Virus record (IMG/VR): IMGVR_UViG_2713896781_000005
DNA: 13,347 bases
DNA from: a virus
Lineage: Duplodnaviria > Heunggongvirae > Uroviricota > Caudoviricetes
Direction: 5' to 3' (one strand)
Made by a program: the position numbers and the translations under genes. The notes beneath the pieces are model-generated. The model did not search any database. It worked only from the letters and a program-made list of their open reading frames with translations, and was not told the origin of the DNA. Shown one piece after another: positions 12,863 to 12,938 of this stretch. Each line of letters begins with the position of its first letter. Positions within the stretch are counted from its first letter, which is position 1.

Positions 12863-12938
12863 GGCCCTTTAGCTCAGTGGTGAGAGCGAGCGACGCATAA
12901 TCGCCAGGTCGCTGGTTCGAATCCAGTACAACGCGCCA
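12863..12938 (+). tRNA. tRNA-like element, tRNA-Ile2/Met-like body with anticodon CAT (12896-12898) and 3' GCCA, but non-pairing acceptor stem and G at position 33
   Basis: Hand-folded: D arm GCTC/GAGC, anticodon stem AGCGA/TCGCC, T arm GCTGG-TTCGAAT-CCAGT and CCA end all present; the body closely resembles E. coli tRNA-Ile2 as I recall it. 5' acceptor GGCCCTT cannot pair with 3' ACAACGC. Confidence 0.55.

Follow-up and report, generated by a model that had tools for sequence, protein, structure and literature searches.

The closest described counterpart of the locus analysed here is the ileZ-argN-argO tRNA gene cluster of Stx-converting and lambdoid phages, which in phage 933W (AF125520) is annotated in the order Q, pR', terminators, putative pT, ileZ, argN, argO, terminator and stxA2. 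Intact ileZ shares 68 of 76 positions with ileX (b3069) of E. coli K-12, the gene for the lysidine-modified CAU tRNA-Ile2.

In E. coli, the loss of DNA lying between short direct repeats and the unequal recombination of tandem tRNA genes are familiar events, as exemplified by the lacI deletion hotspots and the tyrT recombinants. Many integrases target the 3' halves of tRNA genes and leave hybrid tRNA genes behind. Transfer RNA pseudogenes and repeat-mediated deletions are already known kinds; in the literature on ileZ, argN and argO, on prophage tRNA pseudogenes and on recombination to hybrid tRNAs, a hybrid of ileZ and argO was not found described, and it appears to be undescribed in the searchable literature.

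Such a hybrid is reported here from a 13,347-nt stretch of viral DNA (IMG/VR record IMGVR_UViG_2713896781_000005; the whole stretch is referred to as the window). The tRNA-like element in question is very probably a non-functional chimeric ileZ-argO tRNA pseudogene, the product of a deletion in a lambda-like prophage of pathogenic E. coli.

A tRNA-like element with an unpaired acceptor stem

Threaded as a cloverleaf, the element possesses canonical D, anticodon and T arms, with a T loop of the TTCRANY type, and an encoded 3' CCA (Table 1), as the original prediction, made from the letters of the window, had stated. The segments between the arms are TA before the D stem, a single G after it and AGGTC before the T stem. 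The A27.C43 mismatch in the anticodon stem occurs also in intact annotated ileZ genes and is therefore not a defect peculiar to the chimera. The two departures from a canonical tRNA that had been proposed are likewise real: the strands that should form the acceptor stem by pairing of positions 1 to 7 with 66 to 72 are for the most part not complementary, and position 33, where U is near-universal in tRNAs, is G. Where ileZ has C4-G69 and C5-G68, the chimera has C.A mismatches.

Table 1. Coordinates of the element, its parts and its neighbouring signals (window positions unless a phage accession is given)
Feature	Position	Strand	Description
tRNA-like element	12863-12938	+	Position 1 = 12863; 76-nt cloverleaf threading
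Acceptor stem			5' GGCCCTT against 3' ACAACGC; 2/7 pairs, G1-C72 and U7-A66 only
D arm			Stem GCTC/GAGC, 4/4 pairs; loop AGTGGTGA; G18G19 present
Anticodon arm			Stem AGCGA/TCGCC, 4/5 pairs
Anticodon loop			C-G-CAT-A-A; G33 = 12895, CAT = 12896-12898
T arm			Stem GCTGG/CCAGT, 5/5 pairs including G49.U65 wobble; loop TTCGAAT
3' end	12935-12938		GCCA: discriminator G plus CCA
ileZ-derived part	12863-12911	+	tRNA positions 1-49, acceptor 5' strand to T-stem base G49
Crossover zone	12912-12926	+	T-arm block CTGGTTCGAATCCAG common to ileZ and argO; deletion junction
argO-derived 3' end	12927-12938	+	T65, acceptor 3' strand ACAACGC, discriminator G, CCA
U33>G	12895	+	T in all intact ileZ copies examined
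C>A at -1	12862	+	Specific to the window's O145:H28-type lineage
RefSeq/PGAP 'tRNA-Met'	12868-12938	+	71 nt, called on identical sequence; maps from positions 3046-3116 of the retrieved locus L004
Putative pT homologue	12825-12853	+	TTGCAG-17 nt-TATTAT, intact; putative tRNA promoter annotated in 933W
Terminator remnant	12953-12979	+	Weak hairpin plus T-run; homologous to the post-argO terminator of 933W
933W cluster	AF125520		ileZ 21120-21195, argN 21205-21281, argO 21295-21371

The tRNA resemblance of the element is far beyond chance. The Rfam tRNA model (RF00005) matches it at 12869-12928 with 37.3 bits (E = 6e-5; gathering score 29), a match that comprises model positions 7-64 only, that is, the three inner arms without the acceptor stem; the intact genes are matched over their full length (ileZ 72.5, argO 70.1 and argN 55.9 bits). 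ARAGORN calls no tRNA anywhere in the whole window, and none in any of four chimeric loci (the window and three others), but three in each of three intact loci, where as positive controls all three tRNAs were recovered. The run of a tRNA finder with which the original prediction was to be checked consequently returned no high-scoring fold with a paired acceptor stem. Misread boundaries were considered and ruled out, as ARAGORN is empty, the Rfam match spans positions 7-64 and no register pairs the acceptor strands.

Folding energies point in the same direction. The cloverleaf of the chimera has an energy of -8.1 kcal/mol versus -29.7 kcal/mol for ileZ, and the z-score of its minimum free energy against shuffled sequences is -0.97 compared with -4.03 for ileZ. 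For the 131-nt putative primary transcript (12854-12984) z amounts to +0.56, and a search for a stable alternative fold in the element and in this putative transcript gave none that beats the shuffles.

An ileZ body joined to the 3' end of argO

When the region 12823-13047 was compared with phage genomes by BLAST, hundreds of Stx-converting and lambdoid phages matched, the query being split in two in each match around some 170 extra bases that carry the annotated ileZ, argN and argO. In a multiple alignment with 933W, Lahn2 and phi296, similarity to ileZ gives way to similarity to argO within the T arm, at a single gap of 174-176 nt. Starting at the promoter, the window agrees with the ileZ locus up to and including the T-stem 5' strand, takes up again in the T loop of argO and then runs on along the acceptor 3' strand and CCA of argO and the sequence beyond; lacking are the 3' end of ileZ, argN as a whole and the initial two thirds of argO. 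The comparison with ileX and phage ileZ that had been suggested for locating the end of the similarity thus finds it in the T arm, with argO thereafter.

Apart from position 33, the segment 12863-12911 is identical to ileZ of 933W, Lahn2, phi296, 01_3327 and O55:H7 RM12579. Over positions 1-56 the element agrees with phage ileZ at 55 of 56 and with ileX of E. coli K-12 at 49 of 56 positions, which bears out the proposed resemblance of the body to tRNA-Ile2, while over positions 57-76 only 12 of 20 match ileZ and 11 of 20 match ileX. Identity with ileZ does not extend along the whole gene, the 3' part being argO: 12912-12938 and argO positions 51-77 are the same at all 27 positions.

The crossover zone is delimited by the ileZ-specific G49 (12911) and the argO-specific T65 (12927). 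With CTGGTTC[A/G]AATCCAG it contains the longest near-perfect direct repeat of ileZ and argO, 15 nt with one mismatch, whose copies lie 174-176 nt apart and of which the window has a single copy at 12912-12926. The crossover would narrow to 12912-12918 if the T loop of the parent was the common TTCAAAT; since TTCGAAT is also known from an intact ileZ allele, the wider bound is safer. In argO, ACAACGC normally pairs with GCGTTGT, and the partner of the ileZ 5' acceptor strand is AAGGGCC. Both partners are gone from the window, and because the 5' strand that was retained stems from ileZ and the 3' strand from argO, the two do not pair.

The nearest intact locus is that of E. coli 01_3327. Over the 238 nt of window positions 12823-13060 it differs from the window by the 176-nt deletion, T33>G and the C>A exchange at 12862 (position -1) only. 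Both ends of the deletion lie in the repeat, one repeat copy is kept and the remainder is not rearranged, which is the picture of a deletion between direct repeats.

Annotation of the element in RefSeq

RefSeq carries the chimera as a tRNA-Met gene, a label that is wrong. The PGAP call leaves out positions 1-5, the first 5 nt of the 5' acceptor strand. Among the 163 genomes with the chimera (see below), all 60 matches listed bear the tRNA-Met label with no pseudogene flag shown, and six further chimeric loci retrieved with their surroundings (L005, L006 and L009-L012) are likewise labelled tRNA-Met. Intact ileZ is labelled tRNA-Ile by PGAP; an intact copy would be tRNA-Ile2.

Genomic context

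The gene order is Q, methyltransferase, element, small RNAs, nanS-p and holin/lysis genes, which places the element inside the prophage late region and agrees with the expectation that tRNA genes of lambdoid and Stx-type phages stand downstream of Q. The feature annotated as 'pT; putative tRNA promoter' in 933W (positions 603-631 of the retrieved locus L001) aligns base for base to the putative pT homologue of the window, although a simple promoter scan, in which the -35 hexamer matches at only three of six positions, does not call it. The terminator remnant is not called by a terminator pattern scan either, and its hairpin has an energy of -6 kcal/mol in the window versus -13.8 in TW14359 and -14.8 kcal/mol in 933W. 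As the intact locus of 01_3327 has the same weak terminator, this weakness is unlinked to the deletion. Read-through into STnc100 may be greater in the weak-terminator haplotype.

Just downstream, two convergent small RNAs are encoded, STnc100 at 13048-13256 on the plus strand (175.6 bits) and the anti-GcvB small RNA AgvB at 13257-13318 on the minus strand (full length, 92.5 bits in Rfam). This convergent 'moron-site' arrangement in EHEC prophages has been reported (PMC4104026); that paper covers the neighbouring small RNAs, and the chimeric element is not described there. A 114-aa open reading frame on the minus strand (12874-13218) overlaps the tRNA remnant and STnc100; it is probably spurious, the corresponding region of other strains being annotated by PGAP only as a partial pseudo 'hypothetical protein'.

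The chimera is immediately preceded by a full-length DNA methyltransferase gene (352 aa; 11764-12822, plus strand), of which in intact-cluster loci, 933W included, only the last ~110 nt remain (L007 and L008 2887-3000, L003 502-600, L001 ~490-600). To judge by these remnants, the Stx-phage arrangement seems to have been derived by deletion from the methyltransferase arrangement of the window. Further upstream, a sok antitoxin RNA is matched at 8446-8621 on the plus strand (Rfam, 118.5 bits), which implies that the early/nin region of the prophage contains a toxin-antitoxin locus of the hok/sok type.

Distribution and history of the chimera

Of 5,426 complete E. coli genomes, 163 contain a 40-mer across the junction (12899-12938) that was chosen so that neither parent gene can seed a match; the 187 places at which it occurs are all chromosomal, with at most two to a genome. 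The carriers include O157:H7 (TW14359, EC4115 and E32511), O145:H28, O111 and O121. The junction was not found in any of 50,697 deposited phage records nor in any GTDB species-representative genome; IMG/VR holds 22 contigs with it.

The junction and the substitution at position 33 travel together. A 50-mer that requires G33 occurs at 186 places in 162 genomes, which leaves one junction place without a match to the G33 query; among the matches listed, G33 is found at the locus of a junction match in every case, and all 22 IMG/VR contigs have G33. A chimera with U33 was sought with a query that combines U33 and the TTCGAAT T loop. It has 30 places, but no U33 chimera was seen among the matches listed: 20 of 20 are annotated as tRNA-Ile, and the one examined more closely, that of UMNK88, proved to be ileZ in intact form, with G57. 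Full linkage of two independent lesions points to a single origin, and we infer from these distributions that the chimeric allele arose once and then spread by prophage recombination.

The chimera stands behind differing Q alleles and differing upstream genes and is followed by one of two distinct 3'-flank haplotypes, which diverge within some 15-30 nt of the tRNA end. The 76-nt core is identical across these backgrounds, the flanks being about 10% different immediately downstream, and the conserved tRNA sequence is a plausible crossover site for the exchange of flanks. Identity of the core could be read as conservation; recombination of prophages at the tRNA sequence is an adequate explanation. 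As the searches demanded near-exact matches and left almost no substitutions in the core to analyse, identical cores are to be expected from recent common descent together with the design of the search. Two IMG/VR chimeras (contigs L016 and L025) have an additional G>A exchange at the conserved G18 of the D loop, which is consistent with continued neutral decay.

The window itself belongs with the O145:H28 strains RM12761 and RM13516, to which it is 100% identical in the element region. Only this group has A at 12862, C being present in intact clusters, in the chimeric loci L005, L006 and L009-L012 and in all 22 IMG/VR copies. Compared with RM12761, the window is identical over 9823-13347 except for six clustered single-base differences at 9943-9997, which suggest that a short patch of a DUF968-family gene was exchanged by recombination or gene conversion.

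The chimera and the intact cluster occur together in at least 11 genomes. In O145 genomes, five to six places match the 225-nt query and only one of them is the chimera, so that the loss of ileZ-argN-argO at the chimeric locus is probably buffered by other copies, as judged from the number of homologous places.

Discussion

The history that best accounts for the locus starts from a prophage in which Q was followed by the usual ileZ-argN-argO cluster. About 176 bp were then lost between the near-identical T arms of ileZ and argO, GGTC[G/A]CTGGTTC[A/G]AATCCAG, by replication slippage or by homologous recombination between short direct repeats; sequence alone does not discriminate between slippage, RecA and a phage recombinase. 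One hybrid gene was left, with the body of ileZ and the acceptor 3' strand of argO. The U33>G exchange in the anticodon loop is a second lesion, by which the U-turn nucleotide was lost.

From this structure we infer that the element is non-functional. According to established tRNA biology, a transcript without an acceptor helix would be handled poorly by RNase P and in 3' maturation, and neither IleRS nor MetRS would find a proper acceptor end on it. Among the recognition elements reported for TilS are the pairs C4-G69 and C5-G68, and with their loss lysidine formation at C34 is predicted to fail. The RNA would thus be expected to be neither correctly processed nor TilS-modified nor aminoacylated, and to be inert in translation and probably unstable, and the chimera may be tolerated because co-resident prophages provide intact copies.

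Four other explanations have to be weighed. The break in the T arm is near the usual place of crossovers at attachment sites, and an integrase acting on a tRNA target might have swapped the 3' part for sequence borne by an integrating element. The foreign 3' segment is, however, the end of argO, a member of the same cluster that otherwise lies 176 nt further on, the sequence on either side retains the order of intact clusters, and the locus is internal to the prophage late region and not at a prophage-host junction; neither the boundary location nor the element-derived 3' sequence of an attachment-site hybrid is found. Moreover, integration into a tRNA gene normally restores a working gene, but this chimera is broken, and the explanation is very improbable. 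Of the proposal that the element is a chimeric tRNA left at an attachment site, the chimera and the replaced 3' portion therefore stand and site-specific recombination does not. That the element is a working tRNA whose acceptor end is unconventional, as the RefSeq label would imply, is just as hard to credit. The PGAP call without a pseudogene flag, an Rfam score above the gathering threshold and the encoded GCCA speak for it; against it are the five missing acceptor pairs, two of which are the C.A mismatches at C4-G69 and C5-G68, G33 in place of the near-universal U33, the rejection by ARAGORN of the chimera but of none of its intact neighbours, the lack of the acceptor stem in the Rfam match and a deletion-product history that is explicit from the comparison with 01_3327. 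An error of sequencing or assembly that collapsed three similar tRNA genes can be conceived, since assembly from short reads can merge repeated tRNA genes, but has a negligible probability: the identical junction recurs in 163 complete genomes that many laboratories produced on many platforms, up to two times in one genome, intact clusters are assembled elsewhere in chimera-bearing genomes, and the linked G33 substitution is not a product of assembly collapse.

Improbable, if less remote, is a tRNA-like RNA that is transcribed from pT or the Q-antiterminated pR' and has been exapted for a new role outside translation. It might act as a decoy or titrator of TilS, RNase P or a tRNA-targeting defence nuclease, or might be a structured 5' module of, or a partner to, the STnc100/AgvB small RNA region. 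Such a role could explain why an identical copy is present in ~3% of complete E. coli genomes, in prophages of O157, O145, O111 and O121. The intact putative promoter pT, the retention of three of the four tRNA arms, an allele unchanged in 163 genomes of several serotypes with two flank haplotypes, and a surrounding region that encodes the regulatory small RNAs STnc100 and AgvB (PMC4104026) are in its favour. On the other hand, element and putative transcript fold no more stably than expected by chance, some copies have the extra mutation at the conserved G18, and the element is absent from the 50,697 phage records and from the representative genomes of other species. Neither fold nor covariation lends support, and compensatory changes are absent. 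The structural RNA of the original prediction accordingly found no support, whereas its decayed phage tRNA is upheld by the ileZ-derived body, the negative ARAGORN result and the partial Rfam match, and the chimeric pseudogene remains the preferred reading.

With respect to significance, this chimeric pseudogene reveals no new mechanism and answers no open question; its value is mainly one of annotation and bookkeeping. The genomes in which it is labelled as a tRNA belong mostly to Shiga-toxin-producing lineages, and phage-borne tRNA counts and rare-codon supply are slightly inflated in chimera-bearing strains. The prophages that carry the chimera are without the AUA-, AGA/AGG- and CGN-decoding tRNAs of their relatives. 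The locus is in addition a clean natural case of a deletion for which adjacent tRNA genes provided the substrate in their conserved T arms, and the junction together with G33 is a convenient marker of single origin for tracing recombination among lambdoid prophages.

Comparison with known systems

The locus resembles its counterpart in Stx and lambdoid phages, ileZ-argN-argO, in its place downstream of Q and pR', behind a putative pT and ahead of a terminator-like hairpin, and in its sequence, the 5' 49 nt being ileZ, the last 12 nt argO and the T-arm block between them shared by both. It differs in having one hybrid gene for three, with no argN, an unpaired acceptor stem, G33 and no ARAGORN call. 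The anticodon CAT and the general body are those of tRNA-Ile2 from ileX, but the C4-G69 and C5-G68 acceptor pairs are lost. As in deletions of the lacI and tyrT type, the endpoints lie in a 15-nt near-perfect repeat 176 nt apart, of which one copy is kept between colinear flanks. In this case, however, the repeats are the T arms of two different isoacceptor genes, and the product is not a lower number of working copies, as in tyrT recombinants, but an unfoldable hybrid of two tRNA species.

A different tRNA cluster is found behind Q in the porcine E. coli UMNK88 (NC_017641.1; locus L036, 1471-1781), where an intact ileZ allele with the T loop TTCGAAT is followed by a 77-nt degenerate homologue of argN, a tRNA-Thr and a tRNA-Gly. 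The degenerate homologue (L036 1547-1625) agrees with argN at 57 of 77 positions and is called neither by ARAGORN nor by PGAP. Like the chimera it is tRNA-derived and occupies the same position behind Q, and it is no longer called by tRNA finders; unlike the chimera, it has decayed by many point substitutions and not by a deletion between genes. This comparison suggests that the decay of tRNA genes in prophage clusters is not unique to the window.
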